DNA of 64,000 bases from an uncultured Chloroflexia bacterium (GTDB lineage: Bacteria > Chloroflexota > Limnocylindria > Limnocylindrales > CSP1-4): contig CAVZHW010000005.1 in NCBI GenBank assembly GCA_963775225.1, positions 21,612-85,611 of the forward strand, read 5' to 3'. The notes below the pieces were generated by a model. It was given only the letters and a program-made list of their open reading frames with translations. It did not search any database and was not told the origin of the DNA. Positions within the stretch are counted from its first letter, which is position 1; the number at the start of each line of letters is the position of its first letter. A program made the position numbers and the translations under genes. Below are positions 16,575-23,759 of the stretch, piece after piece.

Positions 16575-17375
16575 ATGCACACTCACGACGAACCGGACGC
16601 GCTGACCGCCAGCGCACGGCGGTCGGCCCAGGCAAAGTCGAGCCAACCCCTCGATGTGGCGCGAACCGTGAGCGACCCGGGTGCTGCATCAGAGAGTTCG
16701 CTGCTCGAGCTGCAGCGCTTAGCGGGCAACGCCAGTGTGAGCCGGATGTTCACCGGCGAGGAACAGGACGCGCCCGCGTCGCCGGTGCTCGACGTCGTCG
16801 GCAAAGGCGGCGGGTCACCGCTCGAGGGCGGCCTGCGTGGCGAGATGGAGTCCCGTCTGGACGCAGACTTTTCGGACGTGCGCGTGCATACCGATGGGAA
16901 GGCTTCGGAATCGGCCAGATCGGTACAGGCGAAGGCATACACGGTCGGCAGCGACGTCGTCTTTCAATCGGATCACTGGTCGCCCGGCAGCGACCAAGGC
17001 AAGCAGACCCTCGCACACGAACTGACCCACGTCGTCCAGCAGCGCAACGGACCCGTGGCCGGCACGGATGCCGGTGGTGGCATCAAGTTGTCCAGCCCCG
17101 GCGATGAATTCGAGCGGGCGGCAGACGCGACAGCCCACGCGGCGCTTGCCGCGCCGGCGTCGGTGCCTGCGGGCGGCGCTGCTCCCGGTGCGCAGCGGCA
17201 GACCGAGGACGAAACCGATCAGGAGGAAACGGCCCAGGGCTCATTCGTCCAGCGCGAGGCGGCAAAGGGTGATGAAGAGGTGCCCGATGAGGAAGAGGTC
17301 CAGACAACCCTCGCTCAACGCCAGACGGAAGAGGAGATGCTGGGCGAGGACGAAGAGAAGAGCAAGCCGACGTAG
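16575..17375 (+). CDS. DUF4157 ('eCIS core domain') zincin-like protein with an acidic C-terminal tail
   Basis: ATG at 16575, 6 nt after GGAGG. FSDVRVHTDGKASESARSVQAKAYTVGSDVVFQSDHWSPGSDQGKQTLAHELTHVVQQ is the canonical DUF4157 block (HELTH at 17016..17030). LQRLAGNASV at 16710..16739. Confidence 0.85.
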   Translation: MHTHDEPDALTASARRSAQAKSSQPLDVARTVSDPGAASESSLLELQRLAGNASVSRMFTGEEQDAPASPVLDVVGKGGGSPLEGGLRGEMESRLDADFSDVRVHTDGKASESARSVQAKAYTVGSDVVFQSDHWSPGSDQGKQTLAHELTHVVQQRNGPVAGTDAGGGIKLSSPGDEFERAADATAHAALAAPASVPAGGAAPGAQRQTEDETDQEETAQGSFVQREAAKGDEEVPDEEEVQTTLAQRQTEEEMLGEDEEKSKPT

Positions 17376-17399
17376 GTCGAGCTAATCAGTGGCGTCTCG

Positions 17400-19607
17400 A
17401 TGAGCGGCCCGACCCATGGCGATGCGGCGCGCTCGGCACCCGCGGCTGAGCGCGGCACGGGTCCGCGCGTGCCGGGTGGTCAGGCTCGGTCAGCGCTGCC
17501 GTCGACCGCCGCGCCCGTGCATCTCCTGGGCCATCAGCAGCTGACCAACCTGCAATCCCGTGCGGGCAACGCCGCCGTGGTCCAACTCGTCCACGGCGCC
17601 CGCGTCGAGCGCGGCGACGGCGCATCGTCGCCGCTGCCGCCGGTGGTGCAACGAGTGGCAATTCCGGTCAACTTCAGCGAGATCCTGCAGACCGATCCGA
17701 AGTCAAGTTCCAATCGACTGCCCAGTTTCAAGCCGGGCTCGTTCAGCCAGTCCAGCCGCTACCAGCTGACGCGCACCAACGAGGGCCTTCTTGATATCGA
17801 GGACGAGCACGGGGAACTCCTCGCGCTGCGTGGCCATGTCACGGCCTCGGTCCGGATCAGGTTCCGAGATCCTTCCGGGAGCGCCATTCCAGAGGGAGAC
17901 GCGCGACGAGAGTTCGGCAACCGCATGTGCACTTCGCTGGTCGACCACTGGAACGGCCGATTCATGCTCGTCGCACCGATCGAGCGGGCGGCCGCTGCGC
18001 CGCGCGCCGGTTCAGGCTCGACCACGCCGACCACGCCGACCACGCCGACCACGCCGCCCACGCCGACAGCAGCCCGAGCACCCGCGCCGACGCCTGCGCC
18101 GGCCGCAACTGCGACGCCCGCCAGCCCTCCGCCGCCCGAACCAACCGAGACCCGGCTGAGCCTGAATTTCGTCGCCACGCCCGTCTATGCGCTCGACGCG
18201 GAAGCGGATGCCGACGTCAACCTGCACAGCGAGCCGGCCGATCCAGATGCCCACAAACCGATTGATTCGGGCAACTGGTACAGCAACATCGGCAGCGCCT
18301 ACGGCGACACCTCGCCGGAAGTGATCTACGCACATGAGTACGGCCACCTGCTCGGCATTCCAGACGAGTACTCACAGGGCCACGCGGATATCAACCTCAG
18401 ACTGCATGCCATTTCGGGGCGCGGTGGCGAGATGGGCGCCCAGGTGGACAGCGCCGGTCGACGCCAGATCGTCCTGGAGGCCCTCGAGCCCCAGATGCGT
18501 CGTCAGATCGCTCATATCAGCAACGCCGGCGCCGCCGCTTTCCGCACCCAGCGCTCGCGCATCAGGAGCCAGCTGTCCGACACGGTGCGCACTACCTGGC
18601 AGAGTCCGACGACAACTGCGGCGCTGTCATTGCCCGTCATGGCCCATCTCCTGGGCCGCCCTCGCCTGGCGGGCGCGGTGCCGGGGCTGATCGAGGCGGC
18701 CGCTCGCGGGGTGAGCTTTGGCTCGATCGCTGCCGCGGCGGTGAATGCCCACCTGTCCAACGGCGGGGTTGCGACGCTGCTCCGGTCGGTTTACGAGGAG
18801 ACGATCGACAGCGCGATCGCCGGCGGCAGTACCGTCACCGTGCCCATACCCGAGGGTGGAAATGTCGACATCAGCATCGATACGACCGGCGTTGCCGGCG
18901 CGGACCGCGCGCTCGACCGCGCCGCCCGCCGGGCTGCCGCGACGGCAATCGGCAGCCCTCGTGCGACCCGGGCCGGGACGCGCAGCCGGCCGGCGGTCTA
19001 TCCGTCGCAGACGTTCATCGGTCAGCTGGCTTCGATGGCGAGCGATTGGCAGACGGCCGGCGACCTGTTCAGCGCCGAGATGGCCGAGCTGCCGTCGAAG
19101 ATCTTCTCGTCGGCCGTTGGGCGGCTCGAGGCGCGACCACTGACCGCGACAAACATGCGCACCCTCAGGAGCGAGATTCGCGCCCTGATGACGAGCATGA
19201 CCAGCGGCTCCGCGCGCTGGAGCCTCGATAAGTTCCTGAGCGACCAGATCCGGCCGTTGCTCGGCGCGCAGGTCCGGCGCATCCTGGAACTCGCCGGGAC
19301 CGAGCCGGCCGCACACACCAGCGTACCGTCGGGCGGCGGTACCGACGCCGCGCCAGCGCCCCCCGACCCGGCGCTCAAGGCTGCCGTCGATGCCATGTCC
19401 GCCCGGGCTGCGGCGGTGCAGACGCGGCCGTCCGGAGTGGGTGACAAGAATGTCAAGATCCGCTACACGATCAACTCGATGATGGGTGACGACAATGTCG
19501 GCGCGGACATCCGGCCAGACAACGTGCAGGGCATCGTCGACCAGGTGAACTCCAACCTGCGTCAGGCGCGGGAGGGCAGCTTCAACCACCGGCGAGCGCG
19601 TTCATGA
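17400..19607 (+). CDS. 735-aa putative CIS cargo/effector with a zincin metallopeptidase motif HEYGHLLGIPDEY
   Basis: LQSRAGNAAV at 17550..17579. A Thr/Pro/Ala linker follows. AHEYGHLLGIPDEY at 18333..18371 is an HExxHxxGxxDEY-type signature, as seen in toxin-type metallopeptidases. Confidence 0.75.
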   Translation: MSGPTHGDAARSAPAAERGTGPRVPGGQARSALPSTAAPVHLLGHQQLTNLQSRAGNAAVVQLVHGARVERGDGASSPLPPVVQRVAIPVNFSEILQTDPKSSSNRLPSFKPGSFSQSSRYQLTRTNEGLLDIEDEHGELLALRGHVTASVRIRFRDPSGSAIPEGDARREFGNRMCTSLVDHWNGRFMLVAPIERAAAAPRAGSGSTTPTTPTTPTTPPTPTAARAPAPTPAPAATATPASPPPPEPTETRLSLNFVATPVYALDAEADADVNLHSEPADPDAHKPIDSGNWYSNIGSAYGDTSPEVIYAHEYGHLLGIPDEYSQGHADINLRLHAISGRGGEMGAQVDSAGRRQIVLEALEPQMRRQIAHISNAGAAAFRTQRSRIRSQLSDTVRTTWQSPTTTAALSLPVMAHLLGRPRLAGAVPGLIEAAARGVSFGSIAAAAVNAHLSNGGVATLLRSVYEETIDSAIAGGSTVTVPIPEGGNVDISIDTTGVAGADRALDRAARRAAATAIGSPRATRAGTRSRPAVYPSQTFIGQLASMASDWQTAGDLFSAEMAELPSKIFSSAVGRLEARPLTATNMRTLRSEIRALMTSMTSGSARWSLDKFLSDQIRPLLGAQVRRILELAGTEPAAHTSVPSGGGTDAAPAPPDPALKAAVDAMSARAAAVQTRPSGVGDKNVKIRYTINSMMGDDNVGADIRPDNVQGIVDQVNSNLRQAREGSFNHRRARS
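18021..18065 (+). repeat. Coding 9-bp tandem repeat (ACCACGCCG x5, last copy degenerate) encoding TTPTTPTTPTTPPTP
   Basis: Direct reading of accacgccg accacgccg accacgccg accacgccg cccacgccg inside the 735-aa ORF linker. Confidence 0.9.
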
Positions 19608-20380
19608 AGGCTCGGCCGATCCTCCGTTACAACCGCCGCCTGGACTTCTTCGGCGCGCGCGTCGACGACCGTCTGGAGGTTTCGCCCAACGGCGATGTGT
19701 GGCGCTGGTCGCTGTACCCGGCCCGCGCCGACCGGAAGGATGAAGCAGGGACCTTCCGAATCACGCTCGCTGCGGCCGAACTCCAGGAGCTCGCCGCGTT
19801 GGCCGAACGCGTCGCGCCGGAAGCACCCGGCAAGCCGTCGCCGGAGGGCCACATCGAGGCCACGCTGGAGGTGGGCGACAGGACAATCGAGCTCCCGGAC
19901 GACGGTCCGGACGACCAGTTGCAGCTGACTCGACGACGGCTGGACGCCCTGGCCGACCGAACGCTCACCAAACCTCTCGCCGTCGTCCGGCTGGCTGCAC
20001 GGCGGAGTGTCACACAGGGCCAGCCTGCGCCGGTCTTCGTGCTCGAGAACGTAGGCAGTAGGAGAGTCAGCGTGCTCACGCCGGCGGCCAACTTCTCAGT
20101 CTTGGCCGTGCGCCCTCAGGGCAATCGGCTCATCTTCCGCGGCGAAGCGTCGGCGACAGCAGGCTACTTCGACGCTGACGGCGAAATGATCGATGGGCTG
20201 CTGCGGCCGGCGGTGCTCGAGCCCAACGGTTCGGCCACGCTAGTGTTCAGCCAGCCCGTGGACACGGCCGGCGCTGCGCAACTACTGGCGACAGTCGAAG
20301 GCAAGATCAGCCTGACCGGCCCGATCGCCCGAGACGAATTCCCCGACGCCGCGTTCAAGATGTCGACATACATGTCGTGA
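19604..20380 (+). CDS. 258-aa hypothetical protein translationally coupled to the 735-aa metallopeptidase gene (immunity/inhibitor candidate)
   Basis: ATGA overlap with the upstream stop. No signal peptide and no recognisable domain. Confidence 0.6.
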   Translation: MKARPILRYNRRLDFFGARVDDRLEVSPNGDVWRWSLYPARADRKDEAGTFRITLAAAELQELAALAERVAPEAPGKPSPEGHIEATLEVGDRTIELPDDGPDDQLQLTRRRLDALADRTLTKPLAVVRLAARRSVTQGQPAPVFVLENVGSRRVSVLTPAANFSVLAVRPQGNRLIFRGEASATAGYFDADGEMIDGLLRPAVLEPNGSATLVFSQPVDTAGAAQLLATVEGKISLTGPIARDEFPDAAFKMSTYMS

Positions 20381-20400: not shown

Positions 20401-20781
20401 TCAAGCCTCGTGCCGCGGTTCGGTCCGGATGGTGAGGCTCTCCACGTGGTGCCTGTCGGCCGGGTCAAGGTCGATCAGAACTGCCGCCCACGCCGGCAAG
20501 GCTGGATCGTCGAATATGCCCTGAACAGTCCGGCTCGGCCCGTGCAGGCTTGGGACCCGATGCAGTGGCCCAACAAGAGACTCCAAAGCCATCACGTCCC
20601 ACTCTGAGGAACTCGCCAGCGACACTGCGACCACGCCGAAGTGCTCTTGTGTCCAGGGCTTGAAGCTAGCTACCTGGATCGGCCCATAGTCGGCCGGAGG
20701 CGGCACGCTGTCCGCGCACAGGGCACGCAACAGCTGGGCCAATGCGCCCGTTGGACCCATGGACCTCGTCTCGTCGATCAC
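20401..20781 (-). CDS. 126-aa hypothetical protein translationally coupled to the 993-aa gene (immunity candidate)
   Basis: GTGA overlap with the stop of the 993-aa ORF. No recognisable domain. Confidence 0.55.
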   Translation of the reverse strand: MIDETRSMGPTGALAQLLRALCADSVPPPADYGPIQVASFKPWTQEHFGVVAVSLASSSEWDVMALESLVGPLHRVPSLHGPSRTVQGIFDDPALPAWAAVLIDLDPADRHHVESLTIRTEPRHEA

Positions 20782-23759
20782 GGCTTACCCGGGGCTTGAC
20801 CGAGACCCATCAGGTGCTCGAGCTTTTTTACGTGTGCGGCGGCCTCGTGCCACTCCGTATACGCCTTGTCCAGCGCACGTTGCTCACCGACCGCCAGCGT
20901 CTGGCCCGGCGTTTCATGGACCGCCTTTGCCTGCTCTGCGAGTGGCAGCAGTCGGGCAAAGGCCTCGTCTTCCGCCAGCCGCGAGCGCTCGAGACGCGCA
21001 TGCTGGCGCTGCATCGCGGCCGTCAATTCACCGCCTGCCTTATAAGCAGCAACTTCCTCTGGGAACTGGTGGTAAGCGTCCTCGATGGGGGCATTGGCCG
21101 TTATCGCGTCAGCCAGTTCTTGCTCCGCTGCCTGATACAGCGGCGAGCCAGGCGTTGAGTTCTGCCTGGCGCTGGCCAGGTTCGCCCGTGCCTGGTCGAT
21201 CCGGTTCCAACTTGCGTCGAGCTCTCCAAGGATCTGGTTACGCTGCTGCGCATGGGCACCGTAGACGTTTTCGTACTTGGCGGCCGTCTCGGTCGCCACG
21301 GCGCTGCCGGGCGACATGTCTTCTGCCGCTCGCTGGCCTTGGTTCGCAGCAATTGCGGCTTCGGCGATTTCTTGCGGGATGAACAATCTCCTTGCCAGTT
21401 GGGTGGCGTTTTCGCCCGTCGCCGCCGCTTGTTGGCGAGCCATGCGAAACCAGTCGAGGCCGTGCTCGAGTTCGTGGCGTAGCAGTCCGCAGACCTCAGC
21501 GAACTCGTCCGGCGAGATCGTTTCTTTTTCCAGCACCTTGAGTTCAATGCGGACGGACCACATCTCGCCATTGAAACGAGCGCCGATGATGTCGCGCACT
21601 TCGACGCCGGTTGGCTCGGGCATACCGGTGTGGGCCAGCGCCGGGTAGATCTCGTCCACGAGTCGACTCGCCCGCACCAGTGGATCGCCAAGCGCTTGCC
21701 ATTGCTCACGAATCGGATGGAGTTGTGCGGCCAGCTGGGCGGCCTCTGCGCTCACCGGGCCGAGTGCCGCGCCGCCGGTGCCGGGCGCGGCCGCCGGACC
21801 CTTCGCCGCTGGTACTGCGCCTACAGGTTCGCCGCCGGCAAGCGCTCTTTCGATCTTCTGTTCAGCTGACGGTTCAGCCTTCACCGTTTCCGGCTCGGCC
21901 GCGGCCTTAGTCCCGCTGGCCTCGCCAGCGGCTGGCTCCGGCGTACCTTCGGTCGGCTTGGCCGCTTCGTCTGGAATGTGGCCGGTGGCAGCCACGATCG
22001 AGCCAGCGATGTCCATCGCCCCCGAGGTGACGGCCTCTTTGACGACCATGTCACACACATCCGAGAGACTCTCGGGCATTGCCTTGCCGTCGATGATCCG
22101 GTCGAGCACTATCTTGGCCGGAACGTTGTAGAAGCTCGCGGTTGTCGCGCCGCCGACGCTCAGGACCTTTTCAGCGGTCGTTGCGCTCAGTTGCCAGTCC
22201 TTGATCAGCGTGCCGGCAAAGCGTGCCTTGAGAGCATCCGTGAACGCACCCTGGGTGAGGCCGCCGAAGAGCGAAGCCAGGCCGTCGATCGCCGCCATTC
22301 GCGCCACCTTGCCATAGTCGGCCTTGTGTTCCGGATCGACGAAGCTGACGGAGGCCTCTTCGAGGCCTTCCTGGGTGGCCGTGTACCCGGCACTGAACGC
22401 CGCGGCGCGGAGTACGCCGGTGACGCCGGTGAAGGCTGACGCGATCTTGCCCGCGGTCTTGACCCGCTCGAGCCACTTGACGGCGATCCCAGCGCCACCC
22501 ATGACCCGCGCTTCGTAGCCGGCGAAGCGCGTCGTGGCCACGGCGACACTCTGCTCGGCTTCCTGCAGGGCACCCGCAGCGAGCTCGATCTGGCCGTCTT
22601 GGAAGAAGCGCTGGGCCGCATCGAGCTGCTGCTCGCCCTTCGCCCAGATGCTGTTCGGCCCGAGCAATTTGGGGTAGCTGCCTGAGCGCGCCTCCAGCCA
22701 AGCCAGCTCGGCCTGAGCGTCAGTGTCATCAGGGTGCGTCTGCGCACGCACGTGCGCGACGGCCATCTCCATGGCGCTTGGCGCCCCAAGCGCCTCGCTG
22801 GCATGGCGCACTCCGCCGCGGACTTTCTTCTTGACCCAGCCGGTCCAGCCGCCACCGTATTCGGCCCCGCGGTTCTTATCGCTCAGTTCGCGGTGACGGG
22901 CGATCATCTGGTTCAGGTGGCTTTGGAGCTTGTCGATCCCATCGCGTAGCGCCCGGACCTCCGGCCCGTTCGTTACCTGGTCACTGTACGCATCGCCGAA
23001 CTCGGGAATCTTCAACAGGTCTGCAAAGACCACCGCGCCACCGGTGGTCTCAATCTGCCGCCCACCCCACAGCACATTGATGTGCGGATGGCGGGTCATG
23101 ACGCTCGGGTCCTGTTGCGCCTGAAGCGCCGAATAGATCTCAGCCTGGTCCGTTAGCTGGGCGACAACCGGTTTGCTCGCGAAATGCTCCTGAGCCCAGG
23201 CTCGAAAGCGCGTTTCAGGCACAGCGTTCCACGCCGGTACCCGTGAGACGTCGGGAGCGAGCACTTTGGGCGGGTCGAGCGTGGCGCGCGGTGCCTCTTT
23301 GTCGATCGGCCGGAAGCCCCTCTCGATCCGCGCCTGCTCTGCGCGGAAGTCCGAGCTTGCAATATACAATTCGGTGTAGTGCTCGCGGGTCCGGTACGCT
23401 TTCTCGTGTCGCGCGAGAGCGGCATCTACGTCCACGTTGTGCGCGTAAGCGTCGAGCCATTGGCGCCATCCCTCGAGTGCCTCGAACGACATCGCCGAGG
23501 CGAGGGCGGGGAACTTGGCGAGCAGGGCATCGAGCATGGCGGAGGCTCGATGGTTGCTGTCTGCGCGGCCCGAGGAACCGCGGTCCTTCTGGGCTTGGAC
23601 CGCCGCAGCCACAGCCTGATTACCGGCAGCATGCTGCAGTCCAATGATTGTGGCCGCCGGCTCGTTGCCCGCCCGACTGGATTGGCTCGCGCGCCTCGGC
23701 GCATTGGCCTGCTTTCCGGGCGCGCGGGGCTGTCGTGCTGTTCGCTCGAAAGTCGACAC
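20778..23759 (-). CDS. 993-aa putative CIS cargo/effector: N-terminal LQHAAGNQAV motif, Gly/Ala-rich amphipathic segments, C-terminal HExxH (RHELEHGLDW)
   Basis: GTG start. Motif at 23610..23639. GGAGIAVKWLERVKTAGKIASAFTGVTGVLRAAAFSAGY-type segments mid-protein. HELEH at 21462..21476. The modular plan resembles the 1171-aa protein. Confidence 0.75.
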   Translation of the reverse strand: MSTFERTARQPRAPGKQANAPRRASQSSRAGNEPAATIIGLQHAAGNQAVAAAVQAQKDRGSSGRADSNHRASAMLDALLAKFPALASAMSFEALEGWRQWLDAYAHNVDVDAALARHEKAYRTREHYTELYIASSDFRAEQARIERGFRPIDKEAPRATLDPPKVLAPDVSRVPAWNAVPETRFRAWAQEHFASKPVVAQLTDQAEIYSALQAQQDPSVMTRHPHINVLWGGRQIETTGGAVVFADLLKIPEFGDAYSDQVTNGPEVRALRDGIDKLQSHLNQMIARHRELSDKNRGAEYGGGWTGWVKKKVRGGVRHASEALGAPSAMEMAVAHVRAQTHPDDTDAQAELAWLEARSGSYPKLLGPNSIWAKGEQQLDAAQRFFQDGQIELAAGALQEAEQSVAVATTRFAGYEARVMGGAGIAVKWLERVKTAGKIASAFTGVTGVLRAAAFSAGYTATQEGLEEASVSFVDPEHKADYGKVARMAAIDGLASLFGGLTQGAFTDALKARFAGTLIKDWQLSATTAEKVLSVGGATTASFYNVPAKIVLDRIIDGKAMPESLSDVCDMVVKEAVTSGAMDIAGSIVAATGHIPDEAAKPTEGTPEPAAGEASGTKAAAEPETVKAEPSAEQKIERALAGGEPVGAVPAAKGPAAAPGTGGAALGPVSAEAAQLAAQLHPIREQWQALGDPLVRASRLVDEIYPALAHTGMPEPTGVEVRDIIGARFNGEMWSVRIELKVLEKETISPDEFAEVCGLLRHELEHGLDWFRMARQQAAATGENATQLARRLFIPQEIAEAAIAANQGQRAAEDMSPGSAVATETAAKYENVYGAHAQQRNQILGELDASWNRIDQARANLASARQNSTPGSPLYQAAEQELADAITANAPIEDAYHQFPEEVAAYKAGGELTAAMQRQHARLERSRLAEDEAFARLLPLAEQAKAVHETPGQTLAVGEQRALDKAYTEWHEAAAHVKKLEHLMGLGQAPGKP

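Follow-up and report, generated by a model that had tools for sequence, protein, structure and literature searches.

A putative metzincin-type protease and its coupled partner protein at the end of a Streptomyces-type contractile injection system operon in an uncultured Chloroflexota bacterium

Results

Gene organisation of the locus

The window analysed here is a 64,000-nucleotide (nt) stretch of DNA from an uncultured Chloroflexia bacterium (GTDB lineage Bacteria; Chloroflexota; Limnocylindria; Limnocylindrales; CSP1-4), corresponding to positions 21,612 to 85,611 on the forward strand of contig CAVZHW010000005.1 in GenBank assembly GCA_963775225.1. The first 12 kb of the window consists of genes of a contractile injection system (CIS), and the operon that starts among these genes ends with two overlapping open reading frames (ORFs), the subject of this report, which encode a 735-amino acid (aa) protein, likely a zincin-type metallopeptidase, and its 258-aa partner. 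On the minus strand, the Pfam scan recognized genes for a VgrG-like spike, a CIS_tube protein and the sheath. The genes for a Pvc16_N tail terminator and an Afp15-like AAA+ ATPase are on the plus strand and point away from these (Table 1). From position 9337 to 20380, all genes share one strand, with neighbours overlapping or spaced by no more than 75 nt, in the order terminator, ATPase, 1171-aa protein, 217-aa ORF, eCIS_core/DUF4157 protein, protease and partner, so that the protease–partner pair forms the 3' end of this 11-kb terminator/ATPase operon. The solved structures nearest to the window sheath are the Streptomyces CIS sheaths 8bky and 8bl4 (E 5e-204), and by sequence the window CIS is of the Streptomyces type (IId). 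A scan for promoters and terminators returned nothing above chance.

A first-pass annotation, made from the letters of the sequence alone, had described ORFs of 735 and 258 aa at 17400–19607 and 19604–20380, joined through a 4-nt ATGA overlap, and both are present as described. It had also denied the larger protein a signal peptide and taken the smaller one to be cytoplasmic. In agreement with this, neither the 735-aa protein (76.9 kDa, isoelectric point (pI) 9.2) nor the 258-aa protein (28 kDa, pI 5.4) has a signal peptide or a transmembrane segment, the maximal 19-residue Kyte-Doolittle means being 1.38 and 1.02, respectively, and both N-termini are hydrophilic.

Table 1. Features of the protease–partner locus and of the preceding operon genes (positions in the window)
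Feature	Position	Strand	Evidence and remarks
Pvc16_N tail terminator	9337-10173	+	Pfam E 2.5e-46; first operon gene
Afp15-like AAA+ ATPase	10170-12284	+	Pfam E 4.3e-23; context block 9337..12284
Stand-alone eCIS_core (DUF4157) protein, 285 aa	16518..17375	+	PF13699 E 1.1e-31; 24 nt upstream of the protease gene; same N-terminal motif
735-aa protein gene (putative metzincin-like zinc metallopeptidase and CIS cargo)	17400..19607	+	ORF, family searches, AF2 model, structural matches
Residues 1-42, disordered hydrophilic N-terminus, candidate loading-signal region	17400..17525	+	pLDDT <50; mean Kyte-Doolittle of first 35 residues -0.69; length varies among relatives
N-terminal motif LQSRAGNAAV, aa 51-60	17550..17579	+	Common to cargo-island proteins
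Q84-R85 (VQRV element), second half of bipartite signature, start of N-terminal beta region	17649..17654	+	Invariant columns
Putative catalytic domain, N-terminal part, aa 144-195 (strand, helix 168-183, strand)	17829..17984	+	pLDDT 84-97; metzincin alignments start at 144-148; W184 invariant
Hypervariable Thr/Pro/Ala loop, aa 196-249, inside catalytic domain	17985..18146	+	pLDDT ~46-54; contains 9-bp repeat
Putative catalytic domain, central part, aa 250-330, zinc-binding helix	18147..18389	+	Invariant motif residues; local matches to M64 IgA protease, snapalysin, M6
Helical insertion of ~360 aa, aa 331-690, two helices of 55-60 residues	18390..19469	+	AF2 secondary structure; W550 invariant
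Putative catalytic domain, C-terminal part, aa 691-735, terminal helix 706-720	19470..19604	+	Invariant M695 (19482-19484), R705, N717, E725; metzincin alignments reach 713-721
258-aa acidic partner gene (putative binder of inhibitor or immunity type)	19604..20380	+	4-nt ATGA overlap with the protease gene

A small protein family with an invariant zinc motif

The extended zincin signature HExxHxxGxxDEY, which had been located at 18333..18371, is in place: the zinc motif of the 735-aa protein is HEYGHLLGIPDEY (18333-18371), with the H312 codon at 18333. A word-indexed sequence search with the 735-aa protein retrieved 57 homologous clusters, and an exhaustive HMMER scan of 1.84 billion representatives, which was independent of the zinc motif, yielded 413 matches at E <=1e-3 and 121 at E <=1e-30. 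The motif is present in 96 of the 97 full-length family members from the HMMER scan, the sole exception being N-terminally truncated. Full-length members span 620–845 aa and share a single architecture; judged by sequence, the family is small, coherent and unannotated. Across 45 aligned relatives, residues A311, H312, E313, Y314, G315, H316, G319, D322, E323 and Y324 are invariant, as are W184, W550, M695, R705, N717, E725 and the Q84-R85 pair. The string HEYGHLLGIPD is unchanged in all of these relatives, in accordance with the extended metzincin pattern HExxHxxGxx(H/D).

Short HMMER matches covering only the N-terminal 140 residues were considered as representatives of other architectures and rejected, as they proved to be frameshifted or fragmentary gene calls. 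Four metagenome proteins (P0148, P0185, P0196 and P0202) pass into Arg-rich nonsense mid-protein and are back in frame at the end, the mark of frameshifted assemblies. One subgroup, comprising two Nocardioides loci (L013 and L059) and L034, carries a DEYFRS variant after the zinc motif; in the Nocardioides loci the frame is open for ~580–606 residues ahead of the zinc motif, the LQ..GN signature described below was not found there, and these proteins may possess a different N-terminal module. The exact HEYGHLLGIADEY also occurs in an otherwise unrelated ORF of a Nanoarchaeota metagenome-assembled genome (L068; tblastn E 5e-4 over ~100 residues), which has no partner and is probably another Asp-type metzincin. 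A genome from the same taxonomic family as the window genome (G266) encodes two complete protease–partner pairs, one on contig C48 and one on C117.

A metzincin-like fold interrupted by a loop and a helical insertion

The AF2 model of the 735-aa protein has a mean pLDDT of 72.9, with the core above 90. Approximately 20 of the top 50 VIA-align structural matches to this model are metzincins, including ADAMTS-1, ADAMTS-5, adamalysin, ADAM8/10/17/22, ulilysin, snapalysin, astacin, MMP-2/9/12/20, PAPP-A, mirolysin and InhA2, with Z scores of 5.2–6.9 over 116–161 aligned residues (root mean square deviation 3.5–7.2 A); VIA-align regards Z 8 as the level of a clear match. We nevertheless read the fold as metzincin-like because one clan dominates the non-helical matches and agrees with the zinc motif. 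Of the structure prediction and fold search that the first-pass annotation had proposed as a check, VIA-align gave modest support for the zincin assignment, and Foldseek contributed nothing.

The metzincin alignments cover model residues 80–148 to 711–735, most of them 142–148 to 716–721, implying that the predicted catalytic domain is assembled from residues 144–195, 250–330 and 691–735. The boundaries of ~250–735 that had been suggested for this domain must accordingly be revised, its start lying near residue 144. M695 is invariant and precedes helix 706–720, which aligns with the metzincin C-terminal helix, making this residue the putative Met-turn methionine. The segment between the first and second parts is rich in Thr, Pro and Ala and is partly encoded by a 9-bp tandem repeat, noted earlier at 18021..18065 and detected by Tandem Repeats Finder as a period-9 array at 18019-18067 (5.4 copies, 95% matches). 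The proposed linker is thus real and, as had been anticipated, variable in length, measuring 7–54 aa among the 45 relatives, with the window copy being the longest, which suggests that repeat-driven length change is tolerated and plausible; the linker does not, however, precede the catalytic domain, but forms a disordered loop (aa 196–249) within it. Between the presumed third ligand, D322, and M695 lies the helical insertion, 347–391 aa long in relatives, to which Foldseek and VIA found generic helical-bundle matches only. The ESM Atlas contained no usable match for the 735-aa protein.

Comparison with peptidase families pointed to the zinc site alone. Sub-threshold scores were obtained with two models of peptidase M6 (PF05547, 16.5 bits vs a cut-off of 22; TIGR03296, 23.4 vs 110.8), the match being limited to 18–20 residues at the zinc site, and with snapalysin (M7; NF033628, 14.1 bits vs a cut-off of 300). 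An hhalign comparison with a snapalysin gave a probability of 91% over a local 33-column match in the zinc-site region, and PF02031 (snapalysin) had no match in G003, a genome that encodes a family member. The first-pass annotation had likened the protein to the metallopeptidases of polymorphic toxins; the zincin part of that claim agrees with the invariant motif and the metzincin matches, whereas membership in a polymorphic-toxin family is not supported, no Pfam or NCBIfam peptidase model scoring above threshold and none of the Tox-MPTase group appearing in the Pfam scan at E <=0.1, where the weak M6 match stands alone. The eCIS_core domain (PF13699, DUF4157) is absent from the 735-aa protein in the Pfam scan, and searches of PADLOC and PHROGs matched neither this protein nor the 258-aa partner. 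With every family model scoring below its cut-off, the 735-aa protein appears to represent a new family in the metzincin clan, outside M6, M7 and M64.

Snapalysin, InhA (M6) and IgA protease (M64) are metzincins with Asp as the third zinc ligand. The 735-aa protein resembles snapalysin (M7; 1c7k, 4hx3), thuringilysin/InhA (M6; 4yu5) and IgA protease/igalysin (M64; 9ekk) in the motif HExxHxxGxxD(EY) and in local sequence matches at the zinc site, its predicted five-strand/helix catalytic core aligns with those of snapalysin (Z 6.4 with 4hx3) and InhA (Z 5.2 with 4yu5), and, like the Asp-ligand metzincins, it has an invariant Met upstream of the C-terminal helix. It differs from all three in being cytoplasmic, without a signal peptide, in the ~360 helical residues between the third ligand and the putative Met-turn, in the variable 7–54-aa loop within the N-terminal subdomain, and in its N-terminal CIS-type signature. 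Taken together, the invariant HExxHxxGxxDEY motif and the metzincin structural matches make it likely that the protein is a zincin-type metallopeptidase, from which we infer zinc binding and proteolytic activity.

A dedicated acidic partner encoded directly downstream

Related genomic loci, 68 in total, were fetched from Chloroflexota, Actinomycetota and a few other phyla; pairing was counted in 67. Cultured carriers of the family include Pseudonocardia charpentierae DSM 45834, Nocardioides albidus and Agromyces species. An iterated profile of the partner identified it directly downstream of the protease gene in 61 loci. Among the remaining six, four end at a contig edge, and two (L018 and L034) have a downstream ORF of the same size that matches the partner profile with hhalign probabilities of 55% and 90%, respectively. 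With these two divergent cases included, the partner is found downstream in 63 of the 63 loci where downstream DNA is available, and in most loci the two genes overlap by 4 or 1 nt or abut. Consistently, in a sample of 301 genomes from the window's phylum, the partner was detected in just three genomes, each with a clear protease family member and always adjacent to it. On the sequence evidence, the obligate and mostly translationally coupled pairing supports the 258-aa protein being a dedicated partner of the protease. It may bind the protease and inhibit it, although a role as chaperone or loading adaptor would suit these data as well.

The partner has a pI of 4.5–6.0 in all 38 members, and the protease family is mostly basic (median pI 9.1); this complementarity of charge is the one indirect sign that the partner may bind and neutralize the protease. 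The AF2 model of the partner (pLDDT 95.3) contains two domains: an N-domain (aa 3–129), in which a sheet is backed by two helices and which best matches Mago nashi (Z 6.3), and a C-domain (aa 127–258) with an Ig-like sandwich similar to DgpB, ApaG, FlaG, macroglobulin MG domains and 3isy (Z 4.2–5.5). No fold match of the partner exceeds Z 6.3, and both domains are modelled as generic binding folds. Conservation is confined to Gly, Pro and Ala, without any polar or catalytic residue, indicating that the partner is not an enzyme. Neither Pfam nor NCBIfam returned a match for the 258-aa protein, Pfam found nothing consistent across the 38 homologues, and a search of the partner profile against the PDB gave low-complexity noise only.

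One functional lead is BsuPI, the intracellular proteinase inhibitor of Bacillus subtilis (3isy, PF12690), on which the C-domain superposes (Foldseek probability 1.0, TM-target 0.53; VIA Z 4.2); BsuPI and Emfourin clusters are also among the language-model neighbours of the partner, at 0.83–0.86. Unlike BsuPI, the partner carries an additional N-terminal domain, and PF12690 has no match at E <=1 in any of the 38 members. The likeness is generic, as many unrelated Ig-like domains score equally well or better, and is to be taken as a lead only.

Several other candidate relationships were dropped. Apparent protease–partner fusions, that is, long ORFs spanning both genes, are alternative-frame open frames of GC-rich DNA, and the search found no longer proteins containing the partner, which is weak evidence. 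No neighbour besides CIS genes is conserved in the related loci, and a third conserved gene was accordingly discarded, as was kinship between the 258-aa protein and the partners of the other two island cargo proteins, which are unrelated to it.

A bipartite N-terminal signature common to cargo candidates

The N-terminal motif that the first-pass annotation had described as shared aligns in four otherwise unrelated proteins of the island of cargo candidates behind the ATPase gene, with L51, Q52, G56 and N57 invariant and the pattern LQxxAGNxx[VF]. Among the six-frame ORFs of the 1.44-Mb assembly, it occurs five times, four of them in this island, a concentration far beyond chance. By a strict regular expression, 53 of 69 relatives have it ~200–235 aa ahead of the zinc motif; the others have variants or truncated gene calls. 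Of the 11 DUF4157 ORFs in the related loci, 9 carry it ahead of the DUF4157 domain, and it also stands at the start of other large ORFs adjacent to CIS genes. A literature search for the motif strings gave no match.

In the window (17550-17654) and across loci L001-L067, the signature is bipartite: LQRxAGNxAV is followed, after a spacer of 10–30 residues, by VQRV(P)(I/V). Even where the CIS cluster lies hundreds of kilobases away, family members retain it. In two Agromyces loci, ORFs of ~1270 aa beside a sheath gene (L022, 5119-8907; L046, 5185-9006) carry the same N-terminal signature and probably correspond to the large cargo of the window or to Sle1-type proteins.

The cargo of other extracellular contractile injection systems (eCISs) is loaded through a disordered N-terminal region by an AAA+ ATPase (bioRxiv 10.64898/2026.05.27.728243), and no conserved sequence had been detected in eCIS cargo loading signals (PMC11297309). 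Similar to AlgoCIS Cgo1/Cgo2 and PVC Pdp1/Pnf, the 735-aa protein has a disordered hydrophilic N-terminus ahead of the functional domain, and, as in these systems, its operon also includes the gene for an Afp15/Alg15-like AAA+ ATPase. In contrast to the AlgoCIS and PVC loading sequences, which have no conserved sequence across systems (bioRxiv 10.64898/2026.05.27.728243; PMC11297309), a defined motif, LQRxAGNxAV plus VQRV, recurs here across unrelated proteins and two phyla.

Two further large proteins of the island, of 1171 and 993 aa (12277-16442 and 20401-23759), also possess HExxH motifs along with the N-terminal signature, and each is followed by a small overlapping ORF, of 217 and 126 aa, respectively. 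The 993-aa protein and its coupled 126-aa ORF are encoded on the opposite strand and converge on the protease–partner pair. The three small partners of the island are mutually unrelated, and the three large proteins have only the N-terminal motif in common. A single strongly hydrophobic segment is present in the 217-aa ORF (near aa 161) and in the 1171-aa protein (near aa 815).

Association of the family with CIS-encoding genomes

All ten tested genomes without CIS genes near the protease locus encode Pvc16_N elsewhere; where positions were comparable, they suggest distances of tens of kilobases to ~0.9 Mb between the locus and Pvc16_N. The background frequency of Pvc16_N is 58 of 301 genomes (19%) in the sample of the window's phylum and 16 of 201 (15 of 200 without G003; 7.5%) in the phylum of G003, that of Pseudonocardia; the unpublished genomes G232, G455 and G513 were counted solely in these background tallies. 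As the CIS-carrying genomes are related to one another, no formal probability is attached to the co-occurrence. All four genomes with a match to the protease family (A1) among the 301 are Pvc16_N-positive. The family is seldom found in CIS-positive genomes, with 4 carriers among the 58 in the sample.

The 735-aa protein shows the traits of CIS cargo: its gene closes a CIS operon, its N-terminus is disordered and hydrophilic, and it lacks a Sec signal. Its position behind Afp16/Afp15-like genes, the N-terminal motif and the genome-level co-occurrence with CIS make it likely, as the first-pass annotation had suspected, that this protein is a cargo of the CIS.

Discussion

Beyond the gene structure, the motif conservation, the obligate coupled pairing and the CIS linkage, which are direct observations, we propose, with moderate confidence, that the 735-aa protein is an effector cargo of the adjacent IId CIS and a metzincin-type protease held inactive by its 258-aa partner. 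The protease would be made in the cytoplasm, given the lack of a Sec signal. Its disordered N-terminus and the LQxxAGNxAV...VQRV signature would be recognized, probably by the co-transcribed Afp15-like AAA+ ATPase, and the protein loaded into the particle. The enzyme would act as a metzincin-type zinc endopeptidase, with His312, His316 and Asp322 as ligands, Glu313 as the base and Met695 in the Met-turn, the catalytic fold being broken by the hypervariable loop and by the rigid ~360-aa helical insertion. The coupled acidic partner, made in step, would bind the basic protease and keep it inactive in the producer, as an inhibitor or immunity-type safety catch, and would stay behind at cargo loading because it is devoid of the N-terminal signature.

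There is precedent for such an arrangement. Toxin–immunity pairs exist in eCISs (PMC8213781), and an actinobacterial CIS effector is accompanied by a downstream immunity gene (PMC13277306). The pair described here shares with the eCIS toxins (Geller et al. 2021, PMC8213781) and with the Sle1-type RS14790/RS14785 pair of Micromonospora (PMC13277306) a position beside a DUF4157 gene at the 3' terminus of a CIS operon, the lack of a Sec signal and the small cognate gene immediately downstream. Unlike these, the enzymatic domain of the 735-aa protein is not a deaminase, nuclease or NADase, the protein is neither fused to DUF4157 nor related to a tape measure, most members of its family are encoded away from the CIS cluster, and the protective role of the partner is putative. 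In both Streptomyces and Chloroflexota, IId systems seem to operate from within the cell (PMC10066040, PMC10020575, PMC12998442), and for a system that acts inside its producer, a safety catch before loading fits better than classical immunity to an incoming attack.

Several observations weigh against a partner-inhibited effector protease. An effector released inside the producer would meet the cytoplasmic immunity protein, so that a pre-loading safety catch or a chaperone is a better fit than classical immunity, and no orphan immunity genes turned up in the 301-genome sample. In the partner, no metal-chelating residue is invariant, none of the known protease-inhibitor families matches it significantly, and BsuPI, Emfourin and Imm65 (language-model neighbour clusters at 0.79–0.86) are weak leads only. 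As for the protease, no peptidase hidden Markov model in Pfam or NCBIfam reaches its own cut-off, the structural similarity to metzincins is modest (all Z <8), and Foldseek of the model against the PDB yields helical-bundle noise only. Finally, CIS genes lie within 10 kb in only ~13 of the 67 related loci.

The protease could be the cargo and yet its partner a dedicated chaperone or loading adaptor that stabilizes the cargo or hands it to the AAA+ ATPase or the baseplate, a possibility we regard as tentative but worth serious consideration. The strict 1:1 pairing, translational coupling and absence of orphans are compatible with this role; the partner is uniformly acidic, small and non-enzymatic, as secretion chaperones are, and the flat sheet on two helices in its N-domain has its best match in Mago nashi, a protein-binding platform. 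S. lividans Sle2 stabilizes the CIS effector Sle1 (PMC13277306), and the cytoplasmic mode of action of IId CISs makes classical immunity less sensible (PMC10066040, PMC12998442). However, no similarity to known chaperone families is detectable in Pfam or NCBIfam, and the partner gene is always downstream, as immunity genes are. Known adaptor genes of type VI secretion systems, in contrast, usually lie upstream of the effector gene, which counts against an adaptor here. The unrelated small partners of the other two island cargo proteins are typical of toxin-specific immunity, although effector-specific chaperones would give the same pattern.

A role of the 735-aa protein in the CIS itself, as a processing or maturation protease that is regulated by the partner and trims, for example, the loading signals of other cargo or CIS parts, appears very unlikely. 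The gene does lie within the ATPase operon, the conserved VQR that follows the N-terminal signature in all cargo candidates could be a cleavage site, and a part in the maturation or release of toxins has been suggested for DUF4157 itself (PMC8213781). The 735-aa protein, however, bears the very signature that marks the other cargo candidates, most of its relatives are encoded far from the CIS cluster, as accessory effectors are, and with carriers numbering 4 of 58 CIS-positive genomes, the family is too rare to be a core maturation factor. It is more improbable still that the two genes form a CIS-independent module, either toxin–antitoxin-like or built around a stress protease, that is merely frequent in CIS genomes. 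Such a module would account for the ~80% of related loci without a CIS gene within 10 kb and for the absence of a conserved neighbour besides the pair itself, but it is at odds with the presence of a CIS elsewhere in 10 of 10 such genomes, compared with a background of 7.5–19%, with the retention in these loci of the N-terminal signature shared with DUF4157 proteins, and with the lack of any PADLOC or PHROGs match.

We thus favour an effector protease restrained by its partner until loading. CIS effectors with cognate partners are already known as a kind; what is new here is the protease family with its split architecture, the partner family, and the encoding of most members away from the machine that nonetheless keep a sequence-defined N-terminal signature. 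Unusually for a metallopeptidase, a helical insertion of 360 residues separates the zinc site from the putative Met-turn.

Streptomyces-type injection systems have been linked to regulated cell death and development, and few of their effectors are known; to our knowledge, none of these is a protease. The present family provides a concrete candidate for an enzymatic cargo with a dedicated partner and suggests that the genes for such cargo often lie far from those of the machine. Its N-terminal signature, with ~100 independent examples, could serve for cargo prediction and for the loading of foreign proteins. More speculatively, and in our estimation rather unlikely in its entirety, the pair might constitute a self-contained 'armed cargo' unit for cytoplasmic IId systems, in which the protease would be the executioner of CIS-mediated regulated cell death, the partner a stoichiometric safety catch that the AAA+ loader removes, and LQRxAGNxAV...VQRV a sequence-defined loading signal that lets cargo genes scatter across the genome. 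If so, the signature would give CIS cargo its first conserved sequence signal, and genome-wide prediction of IId cargo would become possible.

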